This document shows positions 11,049 through 35,524 of a DNA stretch of 64,000 nt, piece by piece. Source of the DNA: Schmidtea polychroa (Eukaryota); NCBI GenBank assembly GCA_044892525.1, contig CM097888.1, forward strand, positions 68,386,001 to 68,450,000, written 5' to 3'. How positions within the stretch are numbered: position 1 is the first letter of the stretch; each line of letters opens with the position of its first letter. A program made the translations under genes and the position numbers. Under the pieces are notes generated by a model. That model did no database searches. It was not told where the DNA came from and saw nothing but the letters and a program-made list of their open reading frames with translations.

Positions 11049-11599
11049 CTAAAATAAAATATAAAGTTTTATGATAAAAATTCCCTAATTCAATTTTAAA
11101 ATATTGCTAGTTGAATTACTATAGGTGTTGATCTTAAGCATCAAAAAAAAAGATATTCCACCTATTAGTATTACCTTTGCATTAAATAAGATTAATATAT
11201 CCTTTAATATTAATTTTTTAATCAATAGTGTTTTTTCATTTAATTTCATATAATTTTTTTTTAATTCTAATGTTGGGCTGAGTCGAAAATTTAATCGTTG
11301 AAAAATAAGAAAGTAGGGAAGTAGAACATTAAGAAAAATAAAAATAAAATAAATAAAATCAGAAATAAAATAGAATAAGATATAAGGAAAATAATAATTA
11401 AGACATAAGAATTAAAACAAAAAAATAAAATTAAGAAAAGATTAAAATAGAACAAGTTGACAAATAAATAAAGAGGAATTCAAGAAATAATAAGGAAATT
11501 AAGGAAATAAATAGAAAAACATATTAAAAATAAAGAAAATAAGGAAAAAACAACCTAAAAACAAGAAAATTATATTAAATTAATAGAAATAAGCGGTAC

Positions 11600-11741
11600 T
11601 CAACTCTGATTGGTCCGCACAAATAAGAATTTGATATATATACAACTACCAAAAACATTAAATTTACTGTTAACCCCGAGCATTTCATAGGTAAGAAAGA
11701 ATGTTTACTGTTTTGACTGTTAACCCCGAGCATTTCATAGG
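11600..11741 (+). promoter_or_regulatory. Candidate LTR promoter region with 26-bp direct repeat
   Basis: Reverse CCAAT (gattgg) near 11610, TATA-like gatatatatac near 11633, repeat actgttaaccccgagcatttcatagg at 11666-11691 and 11716-11741, donor-like ag|gtaaga at 11691. Function is inferred. Confidence 0.4.
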
Positions 11742-13789
11742 ATCGACACTACTAGCCAAGCAACCGTCATTCAGAAAACTCCACAACTATTCAAAACCAG
11801 TTCAGAGACCGAAATACCATTCATCACAATAATCGACATCCAACGGACCACCATTAGAACTATTTGGAACGAACAACATTGAATTTTGACTCAGCCTAAC
11901 AATAGTAAGGGGTATTTCATTTGTTTATAGATTTATTTAAGTATTTGCAAAGCTAATAATAATGTTAAATATTAACGATTAAACATTTTAGTTAACTCTC
12001 TTCATTTGATTCTCCATTTTAATAACTTTAACGTATTGATGGAATTTGTATTATTTAAGTATTTCAGAATCAATAAAATATTTTTATCCAGATGTCCGTA
12101 TTTTATTTGAATTAAAGATTTTATGAATTTTCATTTAACGAGTAACGTGGAGTTGAGATACTCCATGTCATGGTATGAGGTGCCTTCGGGAGCTCAGCCG
12201 GTGGACATGGAGTATTTCAATCGCGCAGCTAGATTGGGCCGAAATGTGAAGGCTTCTTCACGGGTCCTATCGCTGAAGATGCGACTAAATTATCACAATG
12301 GGGTATGGATAAAAAATAACCGGTAGACAATGATTTCACAAAGATAGTCATACGAATGAAGGGATTTTCAAGGATTTGCACAGTGATTGAGGGCGTCGCA
12401 TTCTTCTTTCGTCAAGTCGTTTTCGTAAGTCTTACCCCTATTGAAAAAAGAGATCCAGACCACGATTTAGTGAACTTCGTCAAAAATAACAACATCTCAT
12501 AGTACGCTTCATCTGGAAACATGGTTTTATCAAATTAATTGCGACAACGTCTATTTGCCGGACTCAGTAGAACTAAATTCGTATGAAATTCCATTATCAT
12601 AGACCCAATGTCATCTAACCTGTCCAGATTGTATGTCAGGTTACGAAAGTATTCTAAAAACTTTAACTAACTCGAAACTATAAAATGCGAGATTCTACGA
12701 AAACCTCTCTAGTATTATAATCAGAAAGTTTTTATAGACTTAGTTATTTCAAAAATTATAACCAGGTAAAATATCACCAAATTTAATTAATAACATTTAT
12801 TTCTACAATAAGAGCCAGGTCATCACTGTATATATCCAAATTATTGAACCTGAGAGAAAAGGACAGGTTTCATCGAGACGGCATTACATCTGAATAGGAA
12901 AATCCGAGTAGAATGACGAGAGTAGTAATATGCTTCAGTATTTGGTAGAATTATTCCCTCGACGATCACTGAAAAGATCCAATAAATTTCCAAACGATGG
13001 TGATCATTCACACAAGTTGATAAGGGTAAAATTCCGCGATGAGAACTGGCGGTAGCATAAATCATAACTCAAATAAATCACTGTGCAGAGAAAATCATAC
13101 GACAGCAGGATCGATAAAATCACCGTGAAAATGGCATACACCAAGTGAGTGAGATAAGATAGTAGCCATACACGAATCCATGTGGTGAGAGCACAGAATA
13201 TCAGACTAGCATACATAGTAGTCGCGACACGTGACATTCACAATAGGTCGATAATGTAATCAACCAGTCGACAGCAGTATCCGTAAATTTGGATATGTTA
13301 TGACCGATGGGATTTTCCATGAGGGTGTTAAAGTAATGGCTGATGTAAACTCATCACATATTTTCAGACCAATGGTAGACAACATTGATAATCACATTCA
13401 CTACCGAATTAAAAGTGCACTTCCAATAACAAATTTCGAATCAAAAATACGTTGAGAGCGATAGTAATTTGTTTTTAATAAATTAAAATAGATAACATAT
13501 AGCAAGGTTTGGTCGCATACTATAATGTCCCTCTACTAAAGCATTATTATATTATTTCACCAATATTATATTTACACCCTATCAATTATTACGTCCCTCA
13601 TGCATACAGTTAGATCAATAGATAGTCAAAGTTAATAACATGCGTCAAGCCGATGGCATTTGGTTAAATAAACCGTTTTAACAACTAAGATCCGTAGTAA
13701 AACCGGATTGTAGAATAAGTTTTCCTTCTTTTCGACGGTCAAGTATCCACGAATGGACGCGGGTCGTATCTAATTTATTCTAAAATCGT

Positions 13790-14578
13790 ATGTTCTCCAT
13801 TTCATTAGTATTATTTATAGCAAGCATGCTACCAACCACTAAATCAGCATTACGGCCGTGCTTCTCGTGCGCGGATAAAAATACGGTGATAAAGGACCTA
13901 CAAACTCAGATTGGACGTTACAAGAGGAAGATAGACGAGCTGGAAGGGACATGGTTTAGTCCCGCTCGGATGAAAGAGATCCAAAAGAAGCTCGATCGTA
14001 GCGAGCATTGCCGGGACGCGCTAATATCTGAGAGCCGTGCCCAAAGAAGTCTAATCAGAGAACAATCCGAGGCACTGCATAAGGTTTACGTGCAGGCGGC
14101 TACAACCCGAAAAATCGTGCAGATTCCCATCCGAGAGGCCGATGACATCTTTCCGCCTCATCACAACCTTTCCTCGAATCCATCTCCACCGTTCAAGAGA
14201 CCGTGCCGAGACTGCGTCGAAACCGAATGGTCCCCCAAGCGTCCAGATGTTGTCATCACGGGTACCAGTAAGCCCCCCACTGCTAGTCCATCTGTATCAG
14301 TCACCCTTCTGCAAGTGGCATCTTCAAGCAAACCCAAGCGCAAACAACTCTCTCGTGCAGAGCGCAAGAAGAGACAGCGCGAGCGCGCTACTGCAAAGCC
14401 AAACATCCCATCAATAGAGGACTCAACCAACGGTGGCAACTCTCACGTGTCCATCGACCTAACAACGGGACCCTCAGCGCGAATCATATCAGCCGCTGGC
14501 GTAAGGTGGGAAGAGAACGCTTCCGAGTTTTTCAACCTCGACGAATTATTCGCCGACACTGAATGGGAGAAACAATAA
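13790..14578 (+). CDS. LTR-encoded 262-aa protein of unknown function (coiled coil, two CxxC, basic NLS-like tract, acidic-aromatic tail)
   Basis: Long ORF in an otherwise AT-rich LTR, identical in both LTRs. Alternative start ATG 13826 follows tttatag; AATAAA overlaps the stop and recurs at 14702. Confidence 0.65.
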   Translation: MFSISLVLFIASMLPTTKSALRPCFSCADKNTVIKDLQTQIGRYKRKIDELEGTWFSPARMKEIQKKLDRSEHCRDALISESRAQRSLIREQSEALHKVYVQAATTRKIVQIPIREADDIFPPHHNLSSNPSPPFKRPCRDCVETEWSPKRPDVVITGTSKPPTASPSVSVTLLQVASSSKPKRKQLSRAERKKRQRERATAKPNIPSIEDSTNGGNSHVSIDLTTGPSARIISAAGVRWEENASEFFNLDELFADTEWEKQ

Positions 14579-15119
14579 AACCCCAGTGGCGGTCAGGATG
14601 AGGAACAAGGATCCGATCTATGTTGATTATGATGTTTTCTCTTCTTTCGACAAACATTAGTAAAATGTACAGCTGAATCCTTGTGTCATAACGTTGAAAT
14701 TAATAAATCTTGTTGTCTTACACGTTTTCGTTCATGAATAATTAGACTTTAATTAAGTGGGTTGAGTAGAGAACCCGCAAGATCTAGTGAGAATTTCCCA
14801 ATTTGCATTCAGCGAATCCTGATAGGTGGTTGTGTAAGGAAATGGACGTAAGCCCTTCTATCGGCAGTCGTGAATGGGAAGTCGAGGCCTCAGCAAGGAG
14901 TAGTTTTAAGGCAGAAGCTCACCTGCTTGCTGGCGTCTCGCCTGCATAGTGCAGTACCAACGTGAAGTGATTCACGGGCACTATGTTGGAAGAAAGTTAT
15001 GTGGGGTTTCACTCCAGGTTGACAAATCGGTGGCACCTTTTATTCGAGATGGACAATCAACCCTTAGACCCGCCAACATGGTAGAATGGTCAGCCGAGGT
15101 GTAACCCCAACATGATTTT

Positions 15120-15137
15120 TGGGGGCTCAGCCGGGAT
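15120..15137 (+). promoter_or_regulatory. Primer-binding site, tRNA-Pro-like
   Basis: TGGGGGCTCAGCCGGGAT matches the known tRNA-Pro PBS TGGGGGCTCGTCCGGGAT at 16/18; it starts 7 nt after the LTR end. Confidence 0.75.
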
Positions 15138-15454: not shown

Positions 15455-15940
15455 ATGACAGAATTCGCGAACCAAATGCAACAACTGCTCAAGTTTATCG
15501 ATATAGAAAACGACTCCCTAACAACACTGACGCATAAAAGAGAAAAAATCAACGCGATATTACTGCAAGCAATCGGACAAACACCAGTCGTACCTAATCA
15601 TATGATATTAGCCACAGGCCTAAGTCGCCCAGATGGAAAAATAAACCCCGAAACCGTATATCAGTGGTATCAAGAGAGATTGAACCACCCAACATTAAAT
15701 CTAGATTATCAGCGTCTAAAAGACTCACTAAATACAATACCAGATGCAATCGAACAAAAAATACAGGAAAAAGTTAACCAATTACGAACTTGTATAGCCT
15801 GCAAACTCCGTCCTATTCGCGTATTACTCTTGCCGTGTGGACACCTCAGTCACTGTGAAGAGTGTGTAAAAGACCTAAAAAGATGCACGATGTGCAAATA
15901 TGAAATAAAAGAGACCCATATGGTCTATTACGGCGAATGA
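15455..15940 (+). CDS. IAP-type C-terminal RING-finger protein (putative E3 ligase), no BIR domain seen
   Basis: CIAC-x9-LPCGH-x3-CEEC-x6-CTMC followed by IKETHMVYY at the C-terminus, the IAP/XIAP-like RING-HC pattern. Acceptor-like ttttccaacag ends 2 nt before the ATG. Confidence 0.85.
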   Translation: MTEFANQMQQLLKFIDIENDSLTTLTHKREKINAILLQAIGQTPVVPNHMILATGLSRPDGKINPETVYQWYQERLNHPTLNLDYQRLKDSLNTIPDAIEQKIQEKVNQLRTCIACKLRPIRVLLLPCGHLSHCEECVKDLKRCTMCKYEIKETHMVYYGE

Positions 15941-18380: not shown

Positions 18381-19286
18381 ATGACGAATGTCGTAAAAAC
18401 CGACGAGTATAAAGAGAAGTTCAGAGGAGAACCGTTCAACGGAAACGCAAACAAGCTAGCATCGTTCATAACTAATTTTGAAGTTTATATCACTGTGTGT
18501 GGATGGACACCCGAAGCAATTAGTAAAAGGATGCCGTTGTTTTTGTGCGATAGTGCATTAGAGGTATATTTAGAAGCTAAAGAGAGAGACACGAAATTAG
18601 AAAAGTGGGAAGATATTAAAACATTCCTGAAGAAAACCTTCGGAGCCAGTAAGCCAATCAACCAGGCGTTGGGCGAACTAGCAAATAGGAAACAAAGAGC
18701 AAACGAATCGATAACATTATATGCCAGTGAATTGCGGAGATTAGCGAAGAAAGCAATGAATGGAAAATTACCCGAAGAAAATCTGATCGGTTATTTCATA
18801 GAGGGATTACGCCGAGAAGAAGTAAGAGCCTCAGTAGGTTGTCAAATGTGCAAAACATTAGAGGAAGCCATAGATTGGGCTACAAGATGCGAGCTCCACC
18901 TTCCAGCTCAAATGAATATTATGCAAGAGGAGGGAAGGATAGCGACAGCAATAGCGAAAGCGGATAACGGAGATAACAACAATCAAGAACCGAAAATGAA
19001 TCAATTTATACCAGGAGCGCACCAAATTTTCAAACCACCACAAGGACGATCAAACGGGAATAATGGTAATCGTAACAACCCGAATAATGAGAACAATTTC
19101 AATAATCGGCGAAATATGAACGATAACAAGCAGTGCCGAACATGCGGTAAACCAGGACACTGGGACAGAGATTGTTATAGAAATTCAAATTGTAATCGTT
19201 GCGGACGGCGTGGACATACCGAAAATGTATGCCAATTGCGAGGCTGTTTTAACTGTGGTCAGCCAGGTCACATCTCCAGAGATTGC
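18381..19286 (+). other. Gag capsid-like domain and three CCHC zinc knuckles
   Basis: Retrotransposon-gag pattern (WEDIKTFLKKTF, RKQRANESITLYASELRRLA, FIEGL); knuckles CRTCGKPGHWDRDC, CNRCGRRGHTENVC and CFNCGQPGHISRDC at 19134-19286. Confidence 0.92.
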
Positions 19287-22200
19287 CGAGAAAGGGGCCA
19301 ACAACAACGACCACCACAGCGAAATAATAATTATATAGCGAATCCGCAACGACAAAGTAACCCTAACGAAGGAAAACAAATGAACGTTATGCAGGAAATT
19401 TCGCAGATGAAACAGATGATGCAACAAATGATGAGACCAAGACAAGAATCAGCACCACAACAAACCCAGAATATACGTATGATGAGGAGTACCGAAAATC
19501 TCAACAATTATGAAGTGCATCAACATGTACAAGAATGGCAAAGGCTACAGGCCGAGGAAGAGAGGATAAAACAAGAACGCAACCAACAACGACAAGAACA
19601 ACCATTGCGAATAAATATGATGAAGTTAGTAAAAGACATGAAGAGCCAGTATTGCTACAATTACGGGAAAAGCCCAAGGGTAGTACCCATGACTGAACCA
19701 GAAAAGGTAAAAGAAATAACAACGGAAATGAAAACAGAGAATTCAACCACGATTTTAAAAGGAAACCAGAGAATTCAGAAAATATTCTGGAAAAAGATAA
19801 AAGATAAAATCGAAAAAGAACATAATAAAGCGAAAGCCGAGACAGAAGATGAAAATAACAAGAGCAAGGAACAAACCAGTCAACTAAACCACCAAATGCT
19901 ACAGGAATTAGAATCAGAAGAAACAACGATATTCGAAAGAAAGAAACTAAAGAGAGTACCAAGGATGAGAAACTTGCAAATCAATATGATGAAAAGGACA
20001 AAAGATGTAGCATCGTCAGACGAGGAAGAAGACTATGTAAGTAGTTTGGGTGGAGAAATACTACAGCTGAATGAAATAAGCGAACCTCCAAAAGGGGAAA
20101 TCAAAGAGGAAGAAGGCGAAAGCGAGATAACCAGCGAAAGTGAAGACGAGGATATCGAAATAAAGTTGAGAAAAGGGAAGGAGGAAGCGATAAAACAAGT
20201 AGCGGAAATACTCCCAGTAGTAGTGAGGAACCAAGAGTTCATTGACGTAATACCATTCAGGCGATTCGTGCAAAAAGTGATGAAATTGGAAAGAAACGAG
20301 AAAGATTTAATACCAAACGAGGAAAAATCAATTATAAAAAATTATATGGAAAAAATGAAGCAGGCCGATACCACGCGGTATGTAATAAAAATCGGAACGA
20401 GTAGAGGACTTGAAAGAATGTGGATAAAAAATACAGTCACCGACGAACTTTTCGATTGGATACGAGAGCATTTGGGAAGTTCGAGAAAGAAAGAATATCT
20501 GTATCAATACCAAGGAGAACAGATCAAACCAGATATGCACTTAGTAGATGCACTAATATGGCCAGGAGAAACGCAAATACTGAAGTTGCATAAAGAAAAA
20601 CAACCAGCCAACCTTTACGATTGGGCTAAAGATGCCAAGGCAGAATATGATTTTAATATCAAATTGAAATTAGAACAAATAAAACAATGTACTCTGAGAC
20701 GAAACCTGGATAAGCTGATCAAACAAATTCAAGAACAAGTAGAAGACAACTGGGATTTACTCATCACCAGACGAGCCCCAGCCATGTACGAACTAATGAG
20801 CCGGTTGCGAGATACAGAAATGCTCCGAATGAGTGATTGGAGAACCATAAATTTGATCCACAAATATGGAAGGTTAAAAGAAACCCAGCCACAGAGGTTG
20901 GAAATAACCATATGGTTACCGAACGAAGAAAAACGACGAATAAAAATGAGCAATCAGAGTACAGTAGATGACTTGGTATCAAAAATAAACCAAGAGATAA
21001 CGGAAAAGGTACGTAGCGAAAGTAGTGATGGTATGGTGGATGATGTAGTCATGATGTACGATAAGATAATATTACGAGCGGAGGACGACACCTCGTTAAG
21101 CGAAATGGGTATGTGGGACAATCACCAGATAATCAGGATAGTACCAATGGATGAATTTCGAACAAGAGATGTAACCTATCAAAAAGAAATACGAGACCGG
21201 ATGAAAACGTTATATCAAAAATCTACGGAAATAATTAAAATCCACCAACAATGGTTAAAAGAAAAAGAACTACAAGGAAAAATCACGAAATTAAGCACCA
21301 GATCCTGCAGACGAACCCCATGGGAAAGAGTGTGGAATGCAGAAAGTAAGGAATGGGAAATCCGGAAAGGAACCTTCGTGGAAACAGACATTGGTGAGAC
21401 AGAAAGTGAATCGGAGGAAGAAGAAGAGGAACCTCCAAAATATGAAGAGGAAGCAAGGGAACAGACATCAGATGACGAAGGCGAGACGGATGTCACATCA
21501 GAAAGCGAAAATGAAGCGAGACATATTCATGCAATGAGGAAAAAGGAACGTGAATATGCTGATATGGACGGCGAGGAAGCGACGGAAGCAAGAGAACGAG
21601 AAGAGAAAGAAAGATATAAACAATTAGGCGATATCTTAGCAATGGGAGCGAAAAATCAAAGACGCCAAGTAGTAGCGTTGGCTAACATCATCTTAAAGAC
21701 ATCAGAGGACATCCACAATCTGAGAGGAATGGCAAAGGCAATAGAGGAATACCGGCAATATAATGAATGGTATCCAGAACAGCTAGAACAAATTATTCGA
21801 AAATGGAGAAATCAGGAATGGGCACAAGACACCCAGGAGAGGTATCACATCCGAATCAAGTATCCAGACAAGAGCATCGAGGAACTAGAGGTGCATCCAA
21901 CAACAAAAATTAGAGAATTAAAAAAGAAATTAGCATATGAAACTCCATTCCATCTGCAACTGTTCGGAAAATCACTAGACGATAATGCAGACGTCGGGAT
22001 AACCCCCATGAGATTGGAAGAGACAAATGTATTAACAATGGCAGAAACGTTGGGAAAACCGTTAAAAAGGAAAAGTAAAATTATTAAACCAACACAAGGC
22101 AGTTTGAGTACTCCAAGTCCGAACAAAGCACCAAGTAAATCTAATGAAACTGAAGAAGTTGAAGAGATAATCCTGGAAGATAGTGACGATGAACCAGGAG

Positions 22201-25200
22201 AAAGATCACCGCTATTAGTGAGATGGCCGACAGGAGCCGAAATGTGGACTAATAACCAGCCATCAACGAGTTATCAACAACCAACGAAACTGAACATCGA
22301 AGAAATCATCGACAATACTACGGAAACCGAAACGGATGAACAATTCCAGAAGCAAAGAGAACCAACGAAAGTAACACCAGAAAGTCAAACCGACAAAATA
22401 ATAGACGAATGGAATGAGTGGCTAAGAAATAACGATAGCTCATTACCCAGAACGGATAACGAAAGAAATCCGAATTACGAAAATACCAGAGAAGCAGGAA
22501 CGATGATGGAAAAACGGGCAAAAGGAAGACCCAAGAAACAAGGAGAAAAGTCTGAGTTCAAAACCAAAGAACAATTAAAGCAAGAACAAGGGCAAGTTCG
22601 ATTAGAAAAATTGGATAAAATAGTATGGGATCTAAAGGAAGCCCAACCAACGATCGAAAGAGGAGAAAAATGGATACGAGAATTGTTAAAAGATATGTTA
22701 ATAATAACAAACCCACAACTTAGACGTTTGTGGCAACGGAAAGTAGCCAGTACGGAAGCTAGACAATTATGGCACACCATTTCGGGGATAATCCCAAAGT
22801 TAATCAAAGAGAAAACGAAAACCACCAAAACGGATTGGGACGAAACAAAGAGAGTGATTGAGCAGCTCACGACAAATGCAAATGATGACGAGCATCACCT
22901 AGTGGTAATCACTTATTTGATGTATAATTTGATGGGACTAGCTGCGAGGAAAATACCAAATAAACAGTTTGCAAATCATGTAGAAATGACCGTTTCAATC
23001 ATAGAGAATACTATTGAACCACACATTATTCGTGCAGGAGGATGGAAAAGACTGATACAAGCGCCACGGAAAAATGAGCAAGAAAGGTCGATGCAAGTTA
23101 GATTGAAAAAACTATTAAATGAACTAGAATGGGAACTACCGATGAAAGATCCCGCAAGCAGAAAAGCATCAATAAATTCGTTAATGATGACTATGATGAT
23201 ATGGATGTTGTGCACAAGTGGAGCAACAGGTTTCACCATCTACGATTGTGATAACATGATAATGAGAGATAAATACTCATTGAGAGACATAGAAGAATGC
23301 AGACAAGCCTCACCCAACAAATTGGACATCGTGAGAACAAAAGTTACTTACCATGTATATCAAGAATCAGATTTCATCAGAACGCAAGCAAGGGAATGCG
23401 TAGTATCAAAAAAGGTACTCGCATATTACTGTGGACAATATTCGTATTCGACTCTTATACTACCCGGTCTGGATAAAGAAATCGTATCAATACAACGAGA
23501 GGATTGTAAAGAGCTATTTAGAACCGGAGCGCTAAAAATGCATAACGGAGTGACAATTCACGGACAAACTGGAATGATTAAAACCGAAAGTGTTTACGTA
23601 TCCGGAAAAGTAAAATCATCAGATGGGTCATGTAACGGAGGTACGTATACGATCCGAGGCGAGGTAATATCGGGAGTTGTAGTGATCGAGTCTTACACGG
23701 TCGAATTAAAAGAATACGAAGCGCAATTTGACGCAAATAATTACCAAATGAAGACCAACCCAACGTGTAGAGCTACAGAAAACGTATGCAGGACAGGAGT
23801 ATCAACTATAATCTATGAAGCTAATACCCAAAAATGCCGACTCCAACTGTTAAAAAGTGCTTTGTTCAATGAAGTAAAAGGAGAAATATATGAGAACGAG
23901 AACGACGAGGATGGAAACGACAGAGTGAGAATGCGAAATGGAAAACCAATGCCACCATCTCCCAGAGAAAAGAGACTTTCAACGCAGAAGACACCAACAG
24001 CATTAATCACAGACGATCCAGATCTAGGTATGAGATTTATCAAAGAGAAAGAAACCACCAAATGTGACAGTATAGTATATAAAACCAATTACGCAGGTAT
24101 CTATATGTCGAGACAAATAATCGATAGAGCAGTGGGAAAGATAGCAACGGAGGACGTAAAACTATACTTATATGCAAATAATAAAATGGATTTTCTATTT
24201 CATCGCGGACAAACGACCTTGCAAAAAGTATATTACGATCTAATACAAAACGATTGTTCATTGAATAAAGAAATATTGAAAACAAAGCTAGCTATTGCGA
24301 TAACGCACCCAGATAACACGATGCCATCACTCCCATTTCCAGATGGACACTTTGGTAGAATGGTAGGAGAAGTGATGTACACATACCAGTGTACCAAGAC
24401 GTATGCACGAATGCCAGAAAAATCCATACTACCCGAAAAGAGATGTGCAAATGAATTAGAAATCCGTTATAAAGGACAAAATCGATTCGTCCAACCAGTC
24501 ACTAGAATTATGAATCCAGTGGGTTTCTACCCAAATCTCTTTAACTGTTCTAATGCATACGGACCTTTATATGAAAGGCCCGATGGGAAATGGATGATGT
24601 TACCGGGAAAAACCATATCCGAGGAGCCCAAGAAATTTGGATTAATAGAACTCGCCACAGAGCTGGATTTCAAACCTATAGACGTGTCAAACGGTGGTAT
24701 GTATTCCCCAGAAGATCTAGAAACAGCACGACTTAACGTACTCTTCCCAGCCAGACGAGAATCCATTTTGTCTAATATGGTAACAATAACTGGGGGCACA
24801 AACTATCAATCAGGCCCGAATTACGAGCTGCTATTATCGCCAGACCATTTTCAACAAGCTACGTCAAACATGATGAAAGCAATGTGGGGAAGATTCTTAG
24901 TTTTTGGAAAAATGATGGCCGGGATATTAGGGATCATACTCATAATTCAGATAGTCAGAGTAATACTAACACAAATGTTAGCTTGTTTCGATATATACAA
25001 GCGGGAAAAGAAAGTTAATTGGAAAATGATAGTAGGCTTCTTACCATTTTTAGCTAAGACCATGGTATTACATGGCCACTCAAAAGACATTCATCGGATA
25101 AAGCGATTGATTAAAATATTAACAAAGATTAAAGGAACCGACGAGGAAGTAGGCAGACGATTCCGGAAAGTAATGTACGATGAAGCAACAAGACGACAAT

Positions 25201-28200
25201 TGAAAAAGAATAAGCCAAAATTCTTGGACCGATTTAGAAGCCAATCATCTAACAGCGATAGTGACGACGATGATAACGGGAACGATAAATGTCTTTATCC
25301 AAACAGAAACCCAAACGAAAAACCAATGGAAACGGCACCATATTGGGAAAAGGAAAAGACAAACACCTGGATCGCCAATGGAAGCTATATACCACCGGAT
25401 ATCGTGGGACCACAAACAGCTTTGACCATGACACAAAATATGTATCCGCAATTACCGAGTCAACCCGGTATGCATTATATGCCAACACGACGTACCAAAA
25501 GTGTAGATCAAGCAGAGGACGTAAGAACAATAGCAGCGATGAGTTTACCTGGAGGTCCAGCAGTAACAGTTATGATTCAAATCAATGGTAAAGAAACCAA
25601 TGCTATGATAGACACCGGAGCTAATGTATCAGCGATAGCGATTAATCAAATCCCCAGTAAACACTGGAAGGATATCGAATCAACAACAATTCACATCATA
25701 GCATGTAGTAAAGAAACAGTGGACGTGGTCGGAAGATGGTGGACTACATTGAGATACCAGGACAACGAAATTGAAACGTATTTGGCAGTAATACCAAAAC
25801 TTAGCGTACCATGCATAATCGGAACGGATTTGATGCCAGAATTGTTAAAAGAAATCGTAATTGACTTAACAACCATGTGTTTAAAAGACAAAACCGGTAG
25901 AATATGCAAAATGAATGCAGTCATCAGATGTCCAGAAAAAATAATAGTACCAGCAAAATCACAGATGATTTGTCAGATAAAAGTGGATACGGGTATGGAA
26001 GGAGAAGTTATCTTTGAACCAAGCAAGTCATTTGAAAAGCGACGAGAATTACCACTCGCAAGAGAAATAATCACAATAAACCAAGAAGGAGTGATACCGC
26101 TCAACATCACGAATTTCGAAGAGGAAGACAAAATCATTTATGAGAACGAAAAATTGGGAAGATTGACCCCAATGATGGACATAGAATTACCGAAAGTGAC
26201 CAACGAGATGATCAAAGATGATGAATTATGGACAATAGATAGTATGTTGTTGACGAATGACGAAAAGAAAAAATTGCACCGATTGTTGGTAGAATATAAA
26301 GATATATTCGCCATCTCAGATTTAGACTTGGGTACATGTGATGTTACCTTACATGCAATACCACTCATAGACGAAACCCCAATTGCATTGAGACCATACA
26401 AGCTAGCAGAAATGCAGAAAGAAATAGCCGAAACAGAAGTACAAAAGATGCTAGACGCAAAAGTAATCGAACCAAGTTGCTCACCCTGGCAATTCCCAGT
26501 GGTCATGGTAAAAAAGAAAGATGGCACCCAACGATTCTGTATCGATTATCGGAAGTTAAACGCAGTGACCAAGAGAGATACCTACCCATTGCCGGACATC
26601 AATGAGATGTTATTGATGTTGCAAGGGGCAGCATATTTTACTTCTTTAGATCTAAAAAGTGGATACTGGCAGATTAAAGTCAAAGATGAGGACAAAGAGA
26701 AAACAGCTTTTACGTTGGGACGAGATCTATATCAATTCAGGAAAATGCCATTTGGACTGACTAACGCACCAGCATCATTTCAACGGTGTATGAACTTTGT
26801 CACCCATGGAATCAAACAATGTATGGTATATATTGATGATTTACTAATCTATTCAGCGACATTTGAACAACATCTAGAAGATATCCGAAACGTATTTATT
26901 AGATTAAGACAGTGGAAACTCAAACTCAAACCATCAAAATGCGATTGGGCAAAGGAAAAAGTCACGTTTTTAGGACACATAGTGTCAGCTAAAGGAAAGG
27001 AGCCAGATCCAAGAAACATTGAGAAAATAAAAACATGTCCAGCACCGAAAACTGTCACCCAAGTTCAGGAATTTCTAGGATTATGCGGATACTATCGCAA
27101 ATTTATCAAAAATTATGCAGGAATTGCAAAACCAATCCAGGAATTAGTAAAGAAGGACATTTCGTTCTTATGGGGGAAGGAACAACAAGAGGCGTTTGAA
27201 ACGCTGAGAGACAAACTAATCGAAGCACCTATCCTCGTACACCCAGATTTTAAGAAGCCATTTCTATTGGCAACGGATGCAAGCGGGTACGCGGCAGGCG
27301 CGATTCTGGGACAATTGGACGATGAGGGAAAAGAGAGAGTAATCGGGTATTACAGTCGAACATTCAAAAAGCACGAAAAGAACTATTCGGTAACAGAACG
27401 AGAAGCATTGGCTATAATACAAGCTATCAAACACTTCCGATATTTACTATGGGGACATGAGATATGCATAACCACAGACCATCAACCATTAGTGTGGTTA
27501 GGGCAACATAAAGAAGCGTCCAGTAGACTGATGAGATGGGCCATGCAATTGCAAGAATACTCCCCATTTATAAAATTTAAAGCGGGAAGAGCAAATGCCA
27601 ACGCCGATTGTATGTCAAGATTTATTTTCCCAGATTTGGTGGATTCAGAAATGCAACGCATATGCTTAATAGTAGCGGAAGATTTGGATTTCTGTCAATT
27701 GCGAAAGGACCAACAAGAGGACGCGGAATTAAAACAAATTATCGATTATATAAAAACCGGACAGACAGATGTATATGCGAAAGACCAAAAATTAAAAGAA
27801 CATATGGATAAACACCGACACCGATATATTATAGAGAAAGATTGGTTGCTGATAATGGATGGGGAAAAACGATTAATGTGTATACCGGAAAACCGACGAA
27901 AAGAGTTACTAACGCAATATCACGATGGGAGATTGGGAGGACATATGTCATCAAAAAAGACGTTAGCAAGAATGAAACAGAAATATTTTTGGCCTACGTT
28001 AACGGAAGATGTAACCGAATGGGTAAAAAATTGTCTAACTTGTGCAACCAGGAAGAATACGGGATCGAAATGGAAAGCACCTTTAACGCCAATGCCAGTA
28101 CCAATAGAACCAATGACAATGATATCCATGGACGTAGTTGGTCCACTACCAGAGTCAGATAAAGGAAACGTTTACATTCTGGTGATCACAGACTTTCTTA

Positions 28201-31200
28201 CGAAATTCCCAGAAGCATTCGCGATGCCAGACCAAAAAGCTAAAACAATCGCAAAAATTTTGGTAGAAGAGATATGTTGCCGATATGGAACACCAAAACA
28301 AATCTTAACCGATCAGGGAACAAATTTTATGAGTGAGATAATGAGCGAAGTAACAAATTACTTCAAAATAGCAAAACTAAGAACATCTCCATACCACCCT
28401 CAAACCAATGGGATGACGGAAAGATTTAATGGAACACTTATACAAATGTTATCAAACTACGTTGACCGTCACCAACGAGATTGGGACGAATATATAAACC
28501 TATGTCTTATGGCGTACAGAATGTCGATTCACGCATCAACGAAAATGAGCCCATTCAAATTAATGTACGGAAGAGAATGTAATATGCCAATGGACCTGGA
28601 ATACCAACCACCGATATCGCAGTATATGGAGATCGATGATTATGTTACGAAATTCAAGGAAAGAATGCAAGAAATTTGGGAAACTGCGGGATTAAATATC
28701 AAGTTCTACCAGGAAAGTTATAAAGATTTACACGATCGAAAGAAAAACGTGAAGCAACATACGTTCCAAACAGGTGATTGGGTAATGATAGAAACCCCGG
28801 AATTAATTCCAGGAACCACAAAAAAGTTACAACGCAACGGAAAAGGACCATATGAGATCTTATTCGTAGGCGAAACTAATGTAAGAGTGAAATTGGTAAA
28901 TAACCCCTTTACCAGACCAATATACGTAAACGTGGCACGATGCAAATCAATTCCAAAAACAGCCACTAGTCAACCAGAAGGCCGTACATTAACCACACGT
29001 TCGCAAACCTACCGAATGAACATGATGCAACAACTCGCAGAACCGATCACTGGACGATTAGGTATCCAACCTTCAGAAGCGGAAAAGATTGTAAAAGAGG
29101 TAAAAATTAAAATACCTGGATGGGCAAAAGATCGATTAGATTTCGAAATATTAGGAGGATTATTGACGATGATCGAGAACTATGCAAATAGAGAAAGGAC
29201 ACACCCATTATTGCGAGTAGTCAAAAGCCAATGGCCAATATTATTTACAATAACAGATCATTACGGAGACACACCATTACACAAACTCATGAAAGTAGGT
29301 AACAACGAGCAAATACTAGAAACAATAGAAGCATTTCACGACTGCAAGCGATCAACAGAACAAACAAACAACCAAGGTTACACACCATTAATGATAGCCG
29401 CAAACAGAGGCAAAACAAAAGACATTATAACCGCATTACTCGATACCGGATCGAAAATAACTACACAAGACCACGAGCGGAAAAACGCTCTACATCATGC
29501 TATCAGAGGGAGAAGTACCGAGGCGTTCACGTCATTGATGGAACTACTATCATATGAGGACAATCGGGAAGTCGGAAACATGTATGATGGATTGCTAACA
29601 GCGATCAAAGAAAAACTGACGACAATTACCGGAATATTAATTACATGGAGAAATCCGATTCGAAACGATTATATGATCAACGTAAACGAAGCGTTCACGA
29701 GAGGAGAGAACACGCTGATGAGAGAAGCTATGAAAGGACATCATTTATTCGAAATCCCGAATCAATTACTAGAACGAGGGATAAAATTCACAAATCACAA
29801 AGACGAACAGTTAACAAAAAAGCGAATCGACACATTCGAAAAATCACTATTCCAATTTACTAACCAAGTACGACATAAATATTGGGAAACAGTAAGTGTG
29901 TCATATATGATGGACACGATGAATAACATCCGCGAGAATTACATGGATATTATCCAAATACTTACAGCAGAGGAACGAATCAATAATCCAAACGGAAAGA
30001 AAACGAAAATAAGGTATGAGAAATCCAGGGAATCAAAGTCAACAACGAACCAAACGGTCACAAACAACGTCATCGAAACCAAATCAATGAGTATAGATCA
30101 AGAGGCAATAATACGCAAAGCAAAAGAAGTGTTCTTTGAGGAAATGCTAGAGCTGCCAGACGAAATAATATTGTCCAAAATAATAAAAGCCGTACACACA
30201 TACGCAAGAGATCAAACCACGGGTTTAGATATCGGGAAAATCAAAACCTTCTTGCCTCGAGCATTTACGATGGTAACGAAGGATTCCCGAACACCCCTAC
30301 AACAAGCAATACTAGCTGCAAAAGAGAATAGAGCAATAACGATCATGAGAATCCTTGGGGAGATGGGCGAGGAAACCAACACGAAAAATGAACAAGGTGA
30401 AACCGCCATGATGTATGCAGCTATAACGAAAATACACCCAAAAACACTCCACATCCTACATCAATCAGGATCGAAACTAGACGAAAGGTCCAATGAAGGA
30501 AATTCCACCTTGGACTGGGCAACCATACAGCCAAACTTAGAAATGATCAGATTTATTTGCAAAAATGCGACAGAAGAAGAAGTTGAAAATATGTGCAAAA
30601 ACACATCTCAGTTTCAATGGAATACGGTACGGAAAAATCTAGAAGCAATGAAATTATTATTAACCTGGAGAGTACCACCAAATAATAAATATGCGATAAA
30701 TGTAAACGAATTCTACGAAAACGGAGAAAATGCGATGGTAAAGAATACCCTAACTAAGGGGGGGACGCCTAAAATTATTTTAATAGTATTAAATAGAGAA
30801 GACCTAAAATTCACGCAAAATCAGAACGAGCAACAACGAATTGGGAAACATCGTCGTATGCAATTGAGAGAGTTAGTTAAAGAATGGAATAGAAAGAGAC
30901 ATGCTGCAACGGGTAGAAAAGAGTTTGAATTCGAAGCAAAATTAGCAAGAAACAGAGTGCTAACAGCATATCGCAGATTATTGAACGATATAAATGTCGA
31001 GGACGACATTTTAAATGACAGCGAGGGAGATAAACACGATGACAATAACGGAAAAGACCGAAAGGAGGATAAAGAGAAAAGAGAACCGGAGGAGGGTAAA
31101 CCAGAAAACAAGGATTCGGATACGAAAAGAGAGGGAAACAGCCCGAGAACCAAGACCAAAGAGGAGGAAAAATCGAATAATGGAAAACAGAGGGTATGCC

Positions 31201-32234
31201 TACCTTTCACTAACAAAGAAATAGAGACAAATATGATATTAATGATAATTATGCTTACCATGATAGAGTTAGTAACAGCTCAGGGAGGGACGAGAACGAT
31301 AAAAGAAACCAAAGAAGCGGAGAATCAAGATAGCAAAGAGGATGAACTAAAACAAGAAAAGAGAAAGCAAGCACAAGAGCAGCAGTGGGATTTAAAGGAA
31401 GAATGGGACTTAAAGGAAAAGTGCATACTAGGAAGATGCATGTCTAGAGCGTATCAGAAATTAGTACTGATAAATGAGGACACAGAACCAATAACAGAAG
31501 TAAGAATACAAGAAGCATACCGAAATCGAGACGGGAAGAGAATAACGAACGTCAAAGGAAAAGAGGTACACCTAGGAAAAGGTGGTGAAGTAGTAATAAC
31601 GCAGATCCAACCTAGAAAAGAGCACAAAGTCTGTATTTCAAGATTAGGACCAGGTGAGAGATGCCATCAATATGTGACGCAGCAGCAGCCGCCGAAAGAA
31701 TACACGGTTTGTATCTGGAGGAATGAATCAAAAAGAGAATGCCGACGATACCCGGGGAAAAGAGGAAAGAAAAGAAAAAACCACGACGAAAAGAACGAAG
31801 GAGGAAAGCACAAGAAAACTGGTGAGGAAGCTCAGGACAACTATGTTTCGGAGGAAGAGATGGAAAAAATACAAAAGATGGCAAAGGAGGGTATGAACGA
31901 GGAAATAGCAAGAATACGGGAAATGATGAAAGGAAATGGCAAAAGAGGAAACGAGAAAAGTACAGAAGCGATATCAACATTAACAAACAAGGAAAAACCA
32001 GAGAGTATAAGCGTGAAGCAGATGATGTGGATCAGTGGGATAATAATAACAGGGGCATTCCTAATCATAACGGGGGGAACAATAAAAATAATTAAAGATA
32101 AACGACATCGCGGAGAACTAGAGATGACTCGAATCAGAAATTTCCAACATCGAGTGAAACGACCAAGTGATATCAAACAAGAACAGTGGGTGGAGGCCTG
32201 GAACGCTCAGCGCCCTCCAAACTCACGTATATAG
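18381..32234 (+). CDS. 4,617-aa single-frame polyprotein: Gag-ZnK3-Ubl3-Bcl2-like-Env-PR-RT-RH-IN-ANK-membrane protein
   Basis: Uninterrupted ORF with all catalytic motifs intact: DTG (25611), YIDD (26829), RNase H TDAS, and integrase zinc-binding plus DVVGP/DQG/ERFN. Confidence 0.97.
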   Translation: MTNVVKTDEYKEKFRGEPFNGNANKLASFITNFEVYITVCGWTPEAISKRMPLFLCDSALEVYLEAKERDTKLEKWEDIKTFLKKTFGASKPINQALGELANRKQRANESITLYASELRRLAKKAMNGKLPEENLIGYFIEGLRREEVRASVGCQMCKTLEEAIDWATRCELHLPAQMNIMQEEGRIATAIAKADNGDNNNQEPKMNQFIPGAHQIFKPPQGRSNGNNGNRNNPNNENNFNNRRNMNDNKQCRTCGKPGHWDRDCYRNSNCNRCGRRGHTENVCQLRGCFNCGQPGHISRDCRERGQQQRPPQRNNNYIANPQRQSNPNEGKQMNVMQEISQMKQMMQQMMRPRQESAPQQTQNIRMMRSTENLNNYEVHQHVQEWQRLQAEEERIKQERNQQRQEQPLRINMMKLVKDMKSQYCYNYGKSPRVVPMTEPEKVKEITTEMKTENSTTILKGNQRIQKIFWKKIKDKIEKEHNKAKAETEDENNKSKEQTSQLNHQMLQELESEETTIFERKKLKRVPRMRNLQINMMKRTKDVASSDEEEDYVSSLGGEILQLNEISEPPKGEIKEEEGESEITSESEDEDIEIKLRKGKEEAIKQVAEILPVVVRNQEFIDVIPFRRFVQKVMKLERNEKDLIPNEEKSIIKNYMEKMKQADTTRYVIKIGTSRGLERMWIKNTVTDELFDWIREHLGSSRKKEYLYQYQGEQIKPDMHLVDALIWPGETQILKLHKEKQPANLYDWAKDAKAEYDFNIKLKLEQIKQCTLRRNLDKLIKQIQEQVEDNWDLLITRRAPAMYELMSRLRDTEMLRMSDWRTINLIHKYGRLKETQPQRLEITIWLPNEEKRRIKMSNQSTVDDLVSKINQEITEKVRSESSDGMVDDVVMMYDKIILRAEDDTSLSEMGMWDNHQIIRIVPMDEFRTRDVTYQKEIRDRMKTLYQKSTEIIKIHQQWLKEKELQGKITKLSTRSCRRTPWERVWNAESKEWEIRKGTFVETDIGETESESEEEEEEPPKYEEEAREQTSDDEGETDVTSESENEARHIHAMRKKEREYADMDGEEATEAREREEKERYKQLGDILAMGAKNQRRQVVALANIILKTSEDIHNLRGMAKAIEEYRQYNEWYPEQLEQIIRKWRNQEWAQDTQERYHIRIKYPDKSIEELEVHPTTKIRELKKKLAYETPFHLQLFGKSLDDNADVGITPMRLEETNVLTMAETLGKPLKRKSKIIKPTQGSLSTPSPNKAPSKSNETEEVEEIILEDSDDEPGERSPLLVRWPTGAEMWTNNQPSTSYQQPTKLNIEEIIDNTTETETDEQFQKQREPTKVTPESQTDKIIDEWNEWLRNNDSSLPRTDNERNPNYENTREAGTMMEKRAKGRPKKQGEKSEFKTKEQLKQEQGQVRLEKLDKIVWDLKEAQPTIERGEKWIRELLKDMLIITNPQLRRLWQRKVASTEARQLWHTISGIIPKLIKEKTKTTKTDWDETKRVIEQLTTNANDDEHHLVVITYLMYNLMGLAARKIPNKQFANHVEMTVSIIENTIEPHIIRAGGWKRLIQAPRKNEQERSMQVRLKKLLNELEWELPMKDPASRKASINSLMMTMMIWMLCTSGATGFTIYDCDNMIMRDKYSLRDIEECRQASPNKLDIVRTKVTYHVYQESDFIRTQARECVVSKKVLAYYCGQYSYSTLILPGLDKEIVSIQREDCKELFRTGALKMHNGVTIHGQTGMIKTESVYVSGKVKSSDGSCNGGTYTIRGEVISGVVVIESYTVELKEYEAQFDANNYQMKTNPTCRATENVCRTGVSTIIYEANTQKCRLQLLKSALFNEVKGEIYENENDEDGNDRVRMRNGKPMPPSPREKRLSTQKTPTALITDDPDLGMRFIKEKETTKCDSIVYKTNYAGIYMSRQIIDRAVGKIATEDVKLYLYANNKMDFLFHRGQTTLQKVYYDLIQNDCSLNKEILKTKLAIAITHPDNTMPSLPFPDGHFGRMVGEVMYTYQCTKTYARMPEKSILPEKRCANELEIRYKGQNRFVQPVTRIMNPVGFYPNLFNCSNAYGPLYERPDGKWMMLPGKTISEEPKKFGLIELATELDFKPIDVSNGGMYSPEDLETARLNVLFPARRESILSNMVTITGGTNYQSGPNYELLLSPDHFQQATSNMMKAMWGRFLVFGKMMAGILGIILIIQIVRVILTQMLACFDIYKREKKVNWKMIVGFLPFLAKTMVLHGHSKDIHRIKRLIKILTKIKGTDEEVGRRFRKVMYDEATRRQLKKNKPKFLDRFRSQSSNSDSDDDDNGNDKCLYPNRNPNEKPMETAPYWEKEKTNTWIANGSYIPPDIVGPQTALTMTQNMYPQLPSQPGMHYMPTRRTKSVDQAEDVRTIAAMSLPGGPAVTVMIQINGKETNAMIDTGANVSAIAINQIPSKHWKDIESTTIHIIACSKETVDVVGRWWTTLRYQDNEIETYLAVIPKLSVPCIIGTDLMPELLKEIVIDLTTMCLKDKTGRICKMNAVIRCPEKIIVPAKSQMICQIKVDTGMEGEVIFEPSKSFEKRRELPLAREIITINQEGVIPLNITNFEEEDKIIYENEKLGRLTPMMDIELPKVTNEMIKDDELWTIDSMLLTNDEKKKLHRLLVEYKDIFAISDLDLGTCDVTLHAIPLIDETPIALRPYKLAEMQKEIAETEVQKMLDAKVIEPSCSPWQFPVVMVKKKDGTQRFCIDYRKLNAVTKRDTYPLPDINEMLLMLQGAAYFTSLDLKSGYWQIKVKDEDKEKTAFTLGRDLYQFRKMPFGLTNAPASFQRCMNFVTHGIKQCMVYIDDLLIYSATFEQHLEDIRNVFIRLRQWKLKLKPSKCDWAKEKVTFLGHIVSAKGKEPDPRNIEKIKTCPAPKTVTQVQEFLGLCGYYRKFIKNYAGIAKPIQELVKKDISFLWGKEQQEAFETLRDKLIEAPILVHPDFKKPFLLATDASGYAAGAILGQLDDEGKERVIGYYSRTFKKHEKNYSVTEREALAIIQAIKHFRYLLWGHEICITTDHQPLVWLGQHKEASSRLMRWAMQLQEYSPFIKFKAGRANANADCMSRFIFPDLVDSEMQRICLIVAEDLDFCQLRKDQQEDAELKQIIDYIKTGQTDVYAKDQKLKEHMDKHRHRYIIEKDWLLIMDGEKRLMCIPENRRKELLTQYHDGRLGGHMSSKKTLARMKQKYFWPTLTEDVTEWVKNCLTCATRKNTGSKWKAPLTPMPVPIEPMTMISMDVVGPLPESDKGNVYILVITDFLTKFPEAFAMPDQKAKTIAKILVEEICCRYGTPKQILTDQGTNFMSEIMSEVTNYFKIAKLRTSPYHPQTNGMTERFNGTLIQMLSNYVDRHQRDWDEYINLCLMAYRMSIHASTKMSPFKLMYGRECNMPMDLEYQPPISQYMEIDDYVTKFKERMQEIWETAGLNIKFYQESYKDLHDRKKNVKQHTFQTGDWVMIETPELIPGTTKKLQRNGKGPYEILFVGETNVRVKLVNNPFTRPIYVNVARCKSIPKTATSQPEGRTLTTRSQTYRMNMMQQLAEPITGRLGIQPSEAEKIVKEVKIKIPGWAKDRLDFEILGGLLTMIENYANRERTHPLLRVVKSQWPILFTITDHYGDTPLHKLMKVGNNEQILETIEAFHDCKRSTEQTNNQGYTPLMIAANRGKTKDIITALLDTGSKITTQDHERKNALHHAIRGRSTEAFTSLMELLSYEDNREVGNMYDGLLTAIKEKLTTITGILITWRNPIRNDYMINVNEAFTRGENTLMREAMKGHHLFEIPNQLLERGIKFTNHKDEQLTKKRIDTFEKSLFQFTNQVRHKYWETVSVSYMMDTMNNIRENYMDIIQILTAEERINNPNGKKTKIRYEKSRESKSTTNQTVTNNVIETKSMSIDQEAIIRKAKEVFFEEMLELPDEIILSKIIKAVHTYARDQTTGLDIGKIKTFLPRAFTMVTKDSRTPLQQAILAAKENRAITIMRILGEMGEETNTKNEQGETAMMYAAITKIHPKTLHILHQSGSKLDERSNEGNSTLDWATIQPNLEMIRFICKNATEEEVENMCKNTSQFQWNTVRKNLEAMKLLLTWRVPPNNKYAINVNEFYENGENAMVKNTLTKGGTPKIILIVLNREDLKFTQNQNEQQRIGKHRRMQLRELVKEWNRKRHAATGRKEFEFEAKLARNRVLTAYRRLLNDINVEDDILNDSEGDKHDDNNGKDRKEDKEKREPEEGKPENKDSDTKREGNSPRTKTKEEEKSNNGKQRVCLPFTNKEIETNMILMIIMLTMIELVTAQGGTRTIKETKEAENQDSKEDELKQEKRKQAQEQQWDLKEEWDLKEKCILGRCMSRAYQKLVLINEDTEPITEVRIQEAYRNRDGKRITNVKGKEVHLGKGGEVVITQIQPRKEHKVCISRLGPGERCHQYVTQQQPPKEYTVCIWRNESKRECRRYPGKRGKKRKNHDEKNEGGKHKKTGEEAQDNYVSEEEMEKIQKMAKEGMNEEIARIREMMKGNGKRGNEKSTEAISTLTNKEKPESISVKQMMWISGIIITGAFLIITGGTIKIIKDKRHRGELEMTRIRNFQHRVKRPSDIKQEQWVEAWNAQRPPNSRI
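23181..25080 (+). other. Envelope glycoprotein (chuvirus/Monjiviricetes-like class III fusogen) embedded in the polyprotein
   Basis: Hydrophobic signal LMMTMMIWMLCTSGATG, then FTIYDC...YSLRDIEEC...YQESD...ECVV...YCGQYS. Cysteine-rich ~560-aa ectodomain, furin-type REKR (23964-23975), TM MMAGILGIILIIQIVRVIL from 24912. Confidence 0.72.
25560..28960 (+). other. Pol: aspartic protease, reverse transcriptase, RNase H, integrase (Ty3/Gypsy)
   Basis: AMIDTGA; SPWQFPVVMVKKKDGTQRFCIDYRKLN; LDLKSGYWQI; MPFGLTNAPASFQR; YIDD; LATDASG; TDHQPL; H-x6-H...CLTC; DVVGP; TDQGTNF; ERFN; GKGPYEI (GPY/F). Confidence 0.97.
29256..30760 (+). other. Two ankyrin-repeat blocks fused downstream of integrase
   Basis: GDTPLHKL, GYTPLMIAA, KNALHHAI; then RTPLQQAI, GETAMMYAA, GNSTLDWA. 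Both blocks end in a related motif (LITWRNP..Y.INVNE...GEN vs LLTWRVP..YAINVNE...GEN). Confidence 0.85.
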
Positions 32235-32839: not shown

Positions 32840-34228
32840 ATGGATAAACGACAAAGAGAAGAGTTCAGAGAGATTGTCGAGCAAGTCCGAAAATCTACAA
32901 CGATCAGAATACACAAACATGTTATGTGCGGAATATGTGAAAAGTTGTTAAAGGAACCTCACCAAACGCAATGTGGATGCAGAGTATGTAAAGAATGTAT
33001 CAGTGAAGCAATAAAGAATAGACCACAGAGGTGCCCGGTGTGTAAAGAGACACTAATATCGAGTTTAGAAGACACTAACGAGGATAAAGCCGCAGTGAAA
33101 GACATGTTAAACACCAACCTGGGATGCAAAAATGCCCCATGCGAATGGAAAGGAGTAATATGGAAGGTAGTACAACATATGGGAGAATGTATGTACAGAA
33201 TTGGCCAGTGTGAAAGGTGCCATAAAACCATTCGAGCAAGCGAAGAAAAAGAGCATCAAAGGCAGTGTGAAGAGAGATTGGAAAGATGTGAACACTGTGG
33301 AGAAATAGATACGTGGATAAATCTCACCCTCAAACATCACAATGTCCAAGAGGAGAGAGTATGTGCAGAGTTCAGTGGGGAATGCCCAAACGGATGTAAC
33401 CAAGGGGAAATAATGAAGGTGGCACAGCATCTAAGGGAATGCGCAAAGAAAAGAATGACATGTGTACTAGGTAGATGGGGTTGTCAGAAACTACTACACC
33501 GAGGTGAGTTACCACATCATTTAGTAGAAAATGCTTCAACTCACGCAGAAATGTGGTCGACTGCGCTACAAGAAAGCGAAGAGAAAGTAAAACAAATGGA
33601 GATAGAGATAACATCGTTGAAAGTGTTAGTCAAAGAACTACTAGAAGAAAGGGAAGCGTTCGAAGAAGCCCGAGCAAACATAAAGATGCAAATAAACCGA
33701 ACAGAAATCAGTAATAATCAGGCCAAGGAGCTACATCAGAAAATACGGGAAATAAATCTAAATGAGATAACCCCAACAGCACCCTACATATGGAAAATAA
33801 CGGGAGTAAAAGAAAGAATACGAAAAGCAAAAACCGGAGAAGAGACAAGAATAACAAGTCCTACATTCCATTCTTGGAAAAATGGGTACAAAATGAAAAT
33901 GAAGGTATATCCCAACGGGGACGGAACCGGATTGGATACGCACTTTTCGATTTTCTTTCTGTTATGTAAAGGAGAATACGACGAAATATTAGAATGGCCG
34001 TTCCAGGCAAAAATCGATATTACTCTGATGAACAACCAAAGTATACATGAGCAAAGCTTCAAAACAACGGGGAATCAAATAGCTTACCAGAGGCCCCTCA
34101 ACGAAGAAGGATCAGCAACAGGAGCACCTACGTTCATCTCACAACAAAGAGTAGAAGATATGGCGAGAAATGATACCATATATATCAAGATGACCGTGAG
34201 GAAAGAGGAGAAGGGTAGAACGGAGTAA
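32840..34228 (+). CDS. Full-length intronless TRAF-family protein (RING, TRAF zinc fingers, coiled coil, MATH), TRAF2/3/5-like
   Basis: RING CGIC..LLKEPHQTQCGCRVCKEC..CPVC; zinc fingers CKNAPCEWKG...H..EC, CEHC, CPNGC; MATH YIWKI...SPTF...GYKMKMKVYPNGDGTGLDTHFSIFF..KGEYDEILEWPF...NDTIYIK. Confidence 0.95.
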   Translation: MDKRQREEFREIVEQVRKSTTIRIHKHVMCGICEKLLKEPHQTQCGCRVCKECISEAIKNRPQRCPVCKETLISSLEDTNEDKAAVKDMLNTNLGCKNAPCEWKGVIWKVVQHMGECMYRIGQCERCHKTIRASEEKEHQRQCEERLERCEHCGEIDTWINLTLKHHNVQEERVCAEFSGECPNGCNQGEIMKVAQHLRECAKKRMTCVLGRWGCQKLLHRGELPHHLVENASTHAEMWSTALQESEEKVKQMEIEITSLKVLVKELLEEREAFEEARANIKMQINRTEISNNQAKELHQKIREINLNEITPTAPYIWKITGVKERIRKAKTGEETRITSPTFHSWKNGYKMKMKVYPNGDGTGLDTHFSIFFLLCKGEYDEILEWPFQAKIDITLMNNQSIHEQSFKTTGNQIAYQRPLNEEGSATGAPTFISQQRVEDMARNDTIYIKMTVRKEEKGRTE

Positions 34229-35476: not shown

Positions 35477-35524
35477 GGGTGGATGAAAAGATGAAAAACT
35501 AAAAACCGGGACGTATATCCCAAA

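Follow-up and report, generated by a model that had tools for sequence, protein, structure and literature searches.

A known feature of a known retroelement is refined here: the polyprotein of a Burro-like giant LTR element, found in the 64,000-nt stretch of Schmidtea polychroa DNA that was analysed (the window), carries three ubiquitin-like domains (Ubls) and not one, with two of them appearing as a conserved pair and the third as an optional addition. The fold was assigned firmly for the second domain, with good support for the third and as probable for the first.

The element and its polyprotein

The element spanned 29,873 nt (11271-41143) and was flanked by a 4-nt target duplication, CTAA; the GC content of its flanks was 27.5%. 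The features outside the Ubl region were as follows.

11271..15112, + strand: 5' LTR, 3842 nt, TG...CA, one mismatch to the 3' LTR
15455..15940, + strand: accessory RING-finger ORF, zf-C3HC4_3 (Pfam, E 7.7e-11)
18381..32234, + strand: polyprotein of 4617 aa, single ORF, Gag–Env–Pol
18534-18815, + strand: Gag domain of the polyprotein (Retrotrans_gag, Pfam)
19134-19289, + strand: three CCHC knuckles of the polyprotein, aa 252-303 (Pfam)
22830..23045, + strand: aa 1484-1555, Bcl-2-like by a weak Pfam match (PF00452, E 0.028-0.04) that falls short of the cut-off
~23178-25001, + strand: Monjiviricetes-type fusion protein, Env (Pfam Monjiviricetes_fusion, E 8e-70)
32840..34228, + strand: accessory TRAF-like ORF with RING, zinc fingers, coiled coil and MATH (Pfam)
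37302..41143, + strand: 3' LTR, 3842 nt, forming a repeat pair with the 5' LTR

With a single mismatch in 3842 nt between the LTRs and a 4617-aa ORF open throughout, the element is a young and very recent insertion. The order of the polyprotein domains, given by Pfam except for the Ubl region, was Gag, CCHC, Ubl region, Bcl-2-like, fusion protein, PR, RT, RH, IN and ankyrin repeats, with no Pfam match between PR and RT; the Bcl-2-like region (aa 1484-1555) gave no Bcl-2 match in the PDB search. The RING E3 cargo that the original prediction had associated with the Ubls was present on the same element, in the RING-finger ORF as well as in the TRAF-like ORF, which combines RING with MATH.

Each LTR encoded a 262-aa ORF (13790-14578 and 39821-40609) with no meaningful Pfam match, and the TRAF-like ORF was followed, at 34367-37075, by three more accessory ORFs with no significant family match, two of them coiled-coil-looking (369 and 250 aa) and one with hydrophobic stretches (222 aa). 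The 5' leader contained a tandem array with a period of ~74 nt (16492-17082). A stretch starting with TGG, ~7 nt past the 5' LTR (15113-15140), resembles a tRNA primer-binding site, and no obvious purine-rich tract was seen before the 3' LTR (37250-37301). Outside the element were ORFs for an ARMT1-like phosphatase (8381-9160), for a protein with a lactate/malate dehydrogenase C-terminal match (47117-48367, - strand) and for a zinc-finger/DUF4371 protein that probably represents a DNA transposase (50243-52093, - strand).

The element was compared with Burro by published description. As far as the available text of PMC6431247 goes, it resembles planarian Burro/GYPSM1 in a length of ~30 kb, LTRs, one ORF of 4.6-5.1 thousand aa and an AT-rich host, in Gag with CCHC, a Ubl and an in-frame Env between gag and pol, in PR-RT-RH-IN, ankyrin repeats and MATH/TRAF cargo, and possibly in a BCL2-like motif. 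In that text, half of the Burro polyprotein is described as unannotated, BCL2-like and dUTPase-like motifs are reported from HHpred, and one Ubi2/SUMO-like motif is named, between MATH and BCL-2. MATH/TRAF is encoded by a separate downstream ORF here, whereas in Burro1 it lies in frame and in the D. tigrina element an ORF upstream encodes it, according to the same text (PMC6431247). Neither MATH nor BIR was among the 19 Pfam families of the polyprotein, and BIR was also absent from 14 other proteins scanned. Since the polyprotein itself lacked MATH and BIR was not detected, the element was classified, by its sequence, as a Burro-like giant Ty3/gypsy LTR retroelement and not as Burro1. It also shares gene order and a chuvirus-type/class III fusogen-related Env with the GAG-ENV-POL errantiviruses of nematodes, bryozoans and flatworms, in the main text of whose description (PMC13524379) the words Burro and ubiquitin are absent.

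Three ubiquitin-like segments

Three stretches with beta-grasp-like patterns had been predicted between nucleocapsid and envelope. All were found in one frame of the polyprotein ORF (aa 666-736, 839-921 and 1155-1220), past the CCHC knuckles and ahead of the fusion-glycoprotein match near aa 1600, in agreement with that prediction, and were delimited as domains as follows.

20376..20594, + strand, aa 666-738: Ubl-1, probable integral ubiquitin-like domain with a conserved core
20895..21146, + strand, aa 839-922: Ubl-2, integral domain of the ubiquitin fold, with conserved core, longer helix and acidic loop
21840..22046, + strand, aa 1154-1222: Ubl-3, the most ubiquitin-like of the three in sequence, in an optional cassette

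Segments 1 and 2 were modelled with AlphaFold from a 4-sequence alignment; the model from a single sequence had a pLDDT of 37 and was therefore left out of the fold search. In the model from the alignment, segment 2 adopted a beta-grasp (E244-250, E256-262, H267-285, E294-298, E321-327) at pLDDT 62-87. In the VIA fold search against 48,161 chains, all 50 matches listed covered segment 2, the best having a Z of 9.5 and an rmsd of 2.4 with 76 aligned, and FAF1 UBX, USP11 UBL and FAT10 being the leading ones (Z 9.4-9.5). A second fold search aligned segment 2 with the Ddi1 UBL (Z 10.4, rmsd 3.5, 82 aligned), and Foldseek matched it in the PDB to ISG15, the Dsk2 UBL and Hub1 (best E 2.8e-3, probability 1.00), with nothing at E<=0.001. 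Among six weak Pfam matches of segment 2, four belong to ubiquitin-fold families, whereas a PDB search with segment 2 as a single sequence returned no ubiquitin-fold match. The structure prediction proposed as a check of the beta-grasp claim thus bears it out for segment 2, which is firmly identified, on its model, as a ubiquitin-fold domain.

No functional subclass could be assigned to this domain from the model. Ubiquitin, SUMO, ISG15 and UBX structures were tied within 1 Z unit, so that the structural matches of segment 2 favour no functional type of Ubl (UBX, SUMO or shuttle-type). Segment 2 resembles the cellular integral UBL, UBX and SUMO-like domains (FAF1 UBX, USP11 UBL, Ddi1, Dsk2, Rad60 SLD2), at Z 8.5-10.4, in having a beta-grasp and no conjugatable tail, but differs from them in its identity of only 6-21% to solved ubiquitin-fold chains, in having no standout subclass and no UBX FP motif, and in its context, a retroelement polyprotein. 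The FP dipeptide of UBX type, sought as the F-cisP touch-turn motif, occurred in none of the three segments, the alignments near the ubiquitin-type hydrophobic-patch turn were gapped or variable, and a scan of aa 531-1420 for a SIM-like pattern found none. The leads to p97, the proteasome and SIM binders that accompanied the original prediction therefore gained no positive support, with no FP motif found and the structural matches so close together. A PxQxS motif at aa 1237, occurring once in aa 531-1600, was treated as a probable chance match.

Segment 3 is, as judged from its sequence, ubiquitin-like with good support. It matched Pfam ubiquitin with 17.7 bits (E 0.003), short of the cut-off of 25.4, keeps the GK turn, and had a designed ubiquitin variant as two of its three PDB sequence matches (best E 0.033). 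In the ESM Atlas it fell among ubiquitin-like clusters (0.90-0.92), and the 10 best family-bearing matches all share one clan. When a profile of segment 2 was run over the polyprotein in 379 windows, segment 3 scored 13.9-14.5 bits and the next non-self part 6.3, a score for segment 3 that none of 500 shuffles matched. A search of the six frames of the window revealed no further Ubl copy. A tandem duplication giving rise to all three Ubls was unsupported; similarity was detected just between segments 2 and 3 (hhalign probability 39).

Segment 1 is probably ubiquitin-like and is the weakest of the three. With a profile of three sequences, a redesigned ubiquitin (2mlb) topped six PDB matches (E 0.011), ungapped over 54 residues, and with a wider profile it was the sole non-TRAF match among 18. 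All three named ESM Atlas rows were ubiquitin/Rad60-SLD, with scores of 0.85-0.86 that amount to a lead, and the AlphaFold model showed the expected order of elements at low confidence (pLDDT 37-59). The Rad60-SLD/SUMO-like family PF11976, which Atlas neighbours carry both for segment 1 and for segment 3, was not matched in the Pfam scans, in which weak matches were filtered. Segment 1 might instead be an unrelated alpha/beta domain, leaving only two Ubls. For this speak the low pLDDT, the lack of a Ubl match in Pfam for three versions of the segment and of any PDB match at E<=10 for the segment alone, a similarity to segment 2 that was undetectable (hhalign probability 0.09) and a score against segment 3 that was equalled by 40 of 500 shuffles. 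Given the ungapped top match to redesigned ubiquitin, the Atlas rows and the fitting order of predicted elements, we consider a two-Ubl polyprotein improbable. No row of the fold-search listings covered segment 1, which is no evidence against its fold, since one domain filled the listings.

Conjugation, like cleavage by hydrolases of the pestivirus type, requires a C-terminal di-Gly after the last strand. Within aa 401-1620, GG was found only at 557 and 1553, following none of the segments, as had been predicted. The three segments are thus, on the evidence of their sequences, neither conjugatable nor pestivirus-type cleavage signals, and the view that they are integral domains is upheld.

Conserved pair and variable slot

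When the whole polyprotein was the query, no homologue emerged from 4219 candidates, and a query with the Ubl-3/Bcl-2 region likewise gave none from 8000, which leaves Ubl-3 without a relative for comparison. Only three relatives, P0001, P0002 and P0003, were found and compared; all are partial predicted proteins, in which junctions could be gene-model artefacts. P0003 was 45% identical over aa 7-1035, possessed segments 1 and 2, lacked the stretch bearing segment 3 and resumed at aa 1261. P0001 possessed segments 1 and 2 (32% over 471 aa), followed by MATH and then by a match to a small domain, and ended ahead of where segment 3 would start. P0002 covered only the region past segment 2 and ran into TRAF-type zinc fingers. 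The TRAF/MATH parts of P0001 and P0002 shared 36-37% identity with the separate TRAF-like ORF of the element. The features defined by this comparison, together with two candidate cleavage sites, were as follows.

19980..19991, + strand, ~aa 534: candidate retroviral-protease site INMM, ahead of the module that holds Ubl-1/2; motif matched in P0003 and P0001
20166..21383, + strand, aa 596-1001: conserved module (AlphaFold pLDDT 69, pTM 0.53), conserved in P0001 and P0003
21486..22160, + strand, aa ~1036-1260: variable cassette of ~225 aa, with acidic linker, small domain and Ubl-3
21525..21536, + strand, ~aa 1049: candidate retroviral-protease site IHAM, where cleavage would separate the Ubl-1/2 module from the Ubl-3 part
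21603-21815, + strand: small domain before Ubl-3, helical by inspection, 42% identical to P0001 over 69 aa

The conserved module consisted of a helical segment, Ubl-1, a second helical segment, Ubl-2, a long helix and a beta-hairpin. Ubl-1 was 52% identical to its counterpart in P0003 and 42% to that in P0001, the values for Ubl-2 being 48% and 35%, respectively, and columns identical in all three sequences made up 48 of 157 in Ubl-1/2 versus 42 of 239 in the flanks (Fisher p 0.003). An invariant Trp stood right before the last strand of both Ubl-1 and Ubl-2 in all three sequences and was absent from Ubl-3. No di-Gly followed Ubl-1 or Ubl-2 in P0001 or P0003. The helical flanks and the small domain before Ubl-3 gave no meaningful Pfam or PDB match. 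At the site of the cassette, the relatives carried nothing (P0003), MATH (P0001) or TRAF zinc fingers (P0002), in frame. As the pair was kept in both informative relatives while the cargo behind it changed, the sequences indicate a layout of a conserved Ubl-1/Ubl-2 pair followed by a variable slot with an optional Ubl-3.

The in-frame MATH of P0001 agrees with the published layout of Burro1. By the layout of P0001, the published position of the SUMO-like motif of Burro, past MATH, fits that of segment 3. Compared with the single Ubl motif of the Burro text, three are present here, two of them upstream of the MATH site of P0001, and Ubl-1 and Ubl-2 are absent from the available text of PMC6431247. 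No report of the upstream pair and no second paper dealing with the domains of Burro were found in the literature searched, although several Ubls may already be shown in the Repbase report, in the original paper on the genome, or in Fig. 2A and supplements of PMC6431247; the available texts of PMC8532177 (on how Burro1 is expressed and controlled by piRNA), PMC11410931, PMC13238120, PMC13524379 and PMC5408684 yielded nothing on Ubls. The two added conserved Ubls and the site of cargo exchange turn a vague 'tinkerer' hypothesis into defined, testable constructs of 70-400 residues, although the gain is a refinement of annotation unless a binding partner is found.

A recurring motif, [IVM][NH][MVA][ML], may represent the site of the element's protease. 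Its strict form, a pattern drawn up post hoc from its matches, occurred five times (aa 334, 411, 534, 1049 and 3546) versus a shuffle mean of 0.81, with two of 1000 shuffles reaching five, and it was found at four aligned sites in P0003 and at one in P0001. A looser form flanked PR, occurring a short way ahead of it and again behind it, and also separated RH from IN; its numbers were not significant (12 versus 6.9; 53 of 1000 shuffles reached 12), and three of these 12 matches were located within Ubl-1, where the helical segment between Ubl-1 and Ubl-2 ends, and within the membrane segment of Env. No protease-site consensus for elements of this kind was found in the literature.

Possible roles of the ubiquitin-like domains

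The reading that we favour, with a probability of about 0.45, is that these integral, non-conjugatable Ubls would serve as docking surfaces on accessory proteins that act alongside the RING, TRAF and Bcl-2-like cargo. The Ubls would face the cytosol, since they lie upstream of the signal-like hydrophobic stretch of Env, located near aa 1600 at the beginning of the fusion-protein model. The element's protease would cut near aa 534 and 1049, producing one protein with Ubl-1/Ubl-2 and another with Ubl-3 and the Bcl-2-like region. The released proteins might then engage proteins of the ubiquitin pathway (E2/E3 or ubiquitin readers) together with the RING and TRAF-like ORFs, whereby host death or immune signalling would be damped. 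A docking role is considered most likely because of the RING, TRAF, Bcl-2-like and ankyrin cargo and because TRAF parts are fused behind Ubl-2 in relatives. Interference with host apoptosis and ubiquitination has been proposed for Burro in the available text of PMC6431247.

A function that is structural and nothing more would likewise be compatible with the better conservation of the folded domains relative to the helical stretches around them. In the main competing explanation, Gag/nucleocapsid of the same element would be the binding partner of the Ubl-1/Ubl-2 module, or the module would self-assemble, with host ubiquitin uninvolved. The pair comes immediately after Gag and persists in both covering relatives while the cargo behind it changes, and its invariant residues include the Trp before the last strand that Ubl-3 lacks. 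A precedent is found in the available text of PMC12911879: coronavirus nsp3 Ubl1 binds N, and nsp3 Ubl1/Ubl2 are likewise integral Ubls by acidic stretches in a viral polyprotein, although of an unrelated virus class, so that this is an analogy with homology not established. As no sequence link to nsp3 was seen among the 50 viral matches listed, and relatives fuse TRAF parts at this very site, a role in assembly is regarded as rather unlikely. In a further explanation, the Ubls would act as units for folding or spacing, or would be neutral passengers from captured host sequence, which could account for P0003 dispensing with Ubl-3. It is nevertheless quite improbable: Ubl-1/2 exceed their flanks in conservation across sequences that are 32-45% identical, and the copy analysed, with one LTR difference in 3842 nt, has an intact ORF.

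Other explanations would have the Ubls imitate or replace ubiquitin itself. As decoys, they would mimic ubiquitin or SUMO and soak up host receptors or deubiquitinases, a role that would suit Ubl-3, which is nearest to ubiquitin in sequence, retains the GK turn and is placed in a swappable cassette beside the Bcl-2-like cargo. Faithful mimicry should, however, retain far more of the surface of ubiquitin than the 6-21% identity of Ubl-2 to solved chains would allow, and decoys are therefore held to be unlikely, at nearly the same level as spacers or passengers. By far the least probable is that the segments are processing signals of the pestivirus type, cut by host ubiquitin C-terminal hydrolases (UCHs), or true conjugatable modifiers, since no di-Gly follows any of them, nor Ubl-1/2 of P0001 and P0003. 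BVDV polyproteins were among the fold matches listed, and ubiquitin inserts in a viral polyprotein are a precedent for ubiquitin-family sequence in such a setting, but those described in the available text of PMC8310069 are cellular ubiquitin cut by UCHs, whereas the Ubls here are divergent.

An extension of the docking reading, offered as a speculation that is more likely wrong than right by a wide measure, is that Burro-like elements possess a two-tier ubiquitin toolkit, composed of an old, undescribed Ubl-1/Ubl-2 scaffold released from Gag by the protease and a plug-in slot that accepts TRAF zinc fingers, MATH or a third Ubl. If true, such a toolkit together with the RING, TRAF and Bcl-2-like cargo would mean that a retrotransposon assembles its own E3 platform and rewires the death signalling of the host cell. 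The signal-like hydrophobic stretch of Env is located at 23181-23231, ~45 aa past the Bcl-2-like match, which it might additionally serve as a membrane tail anchor.
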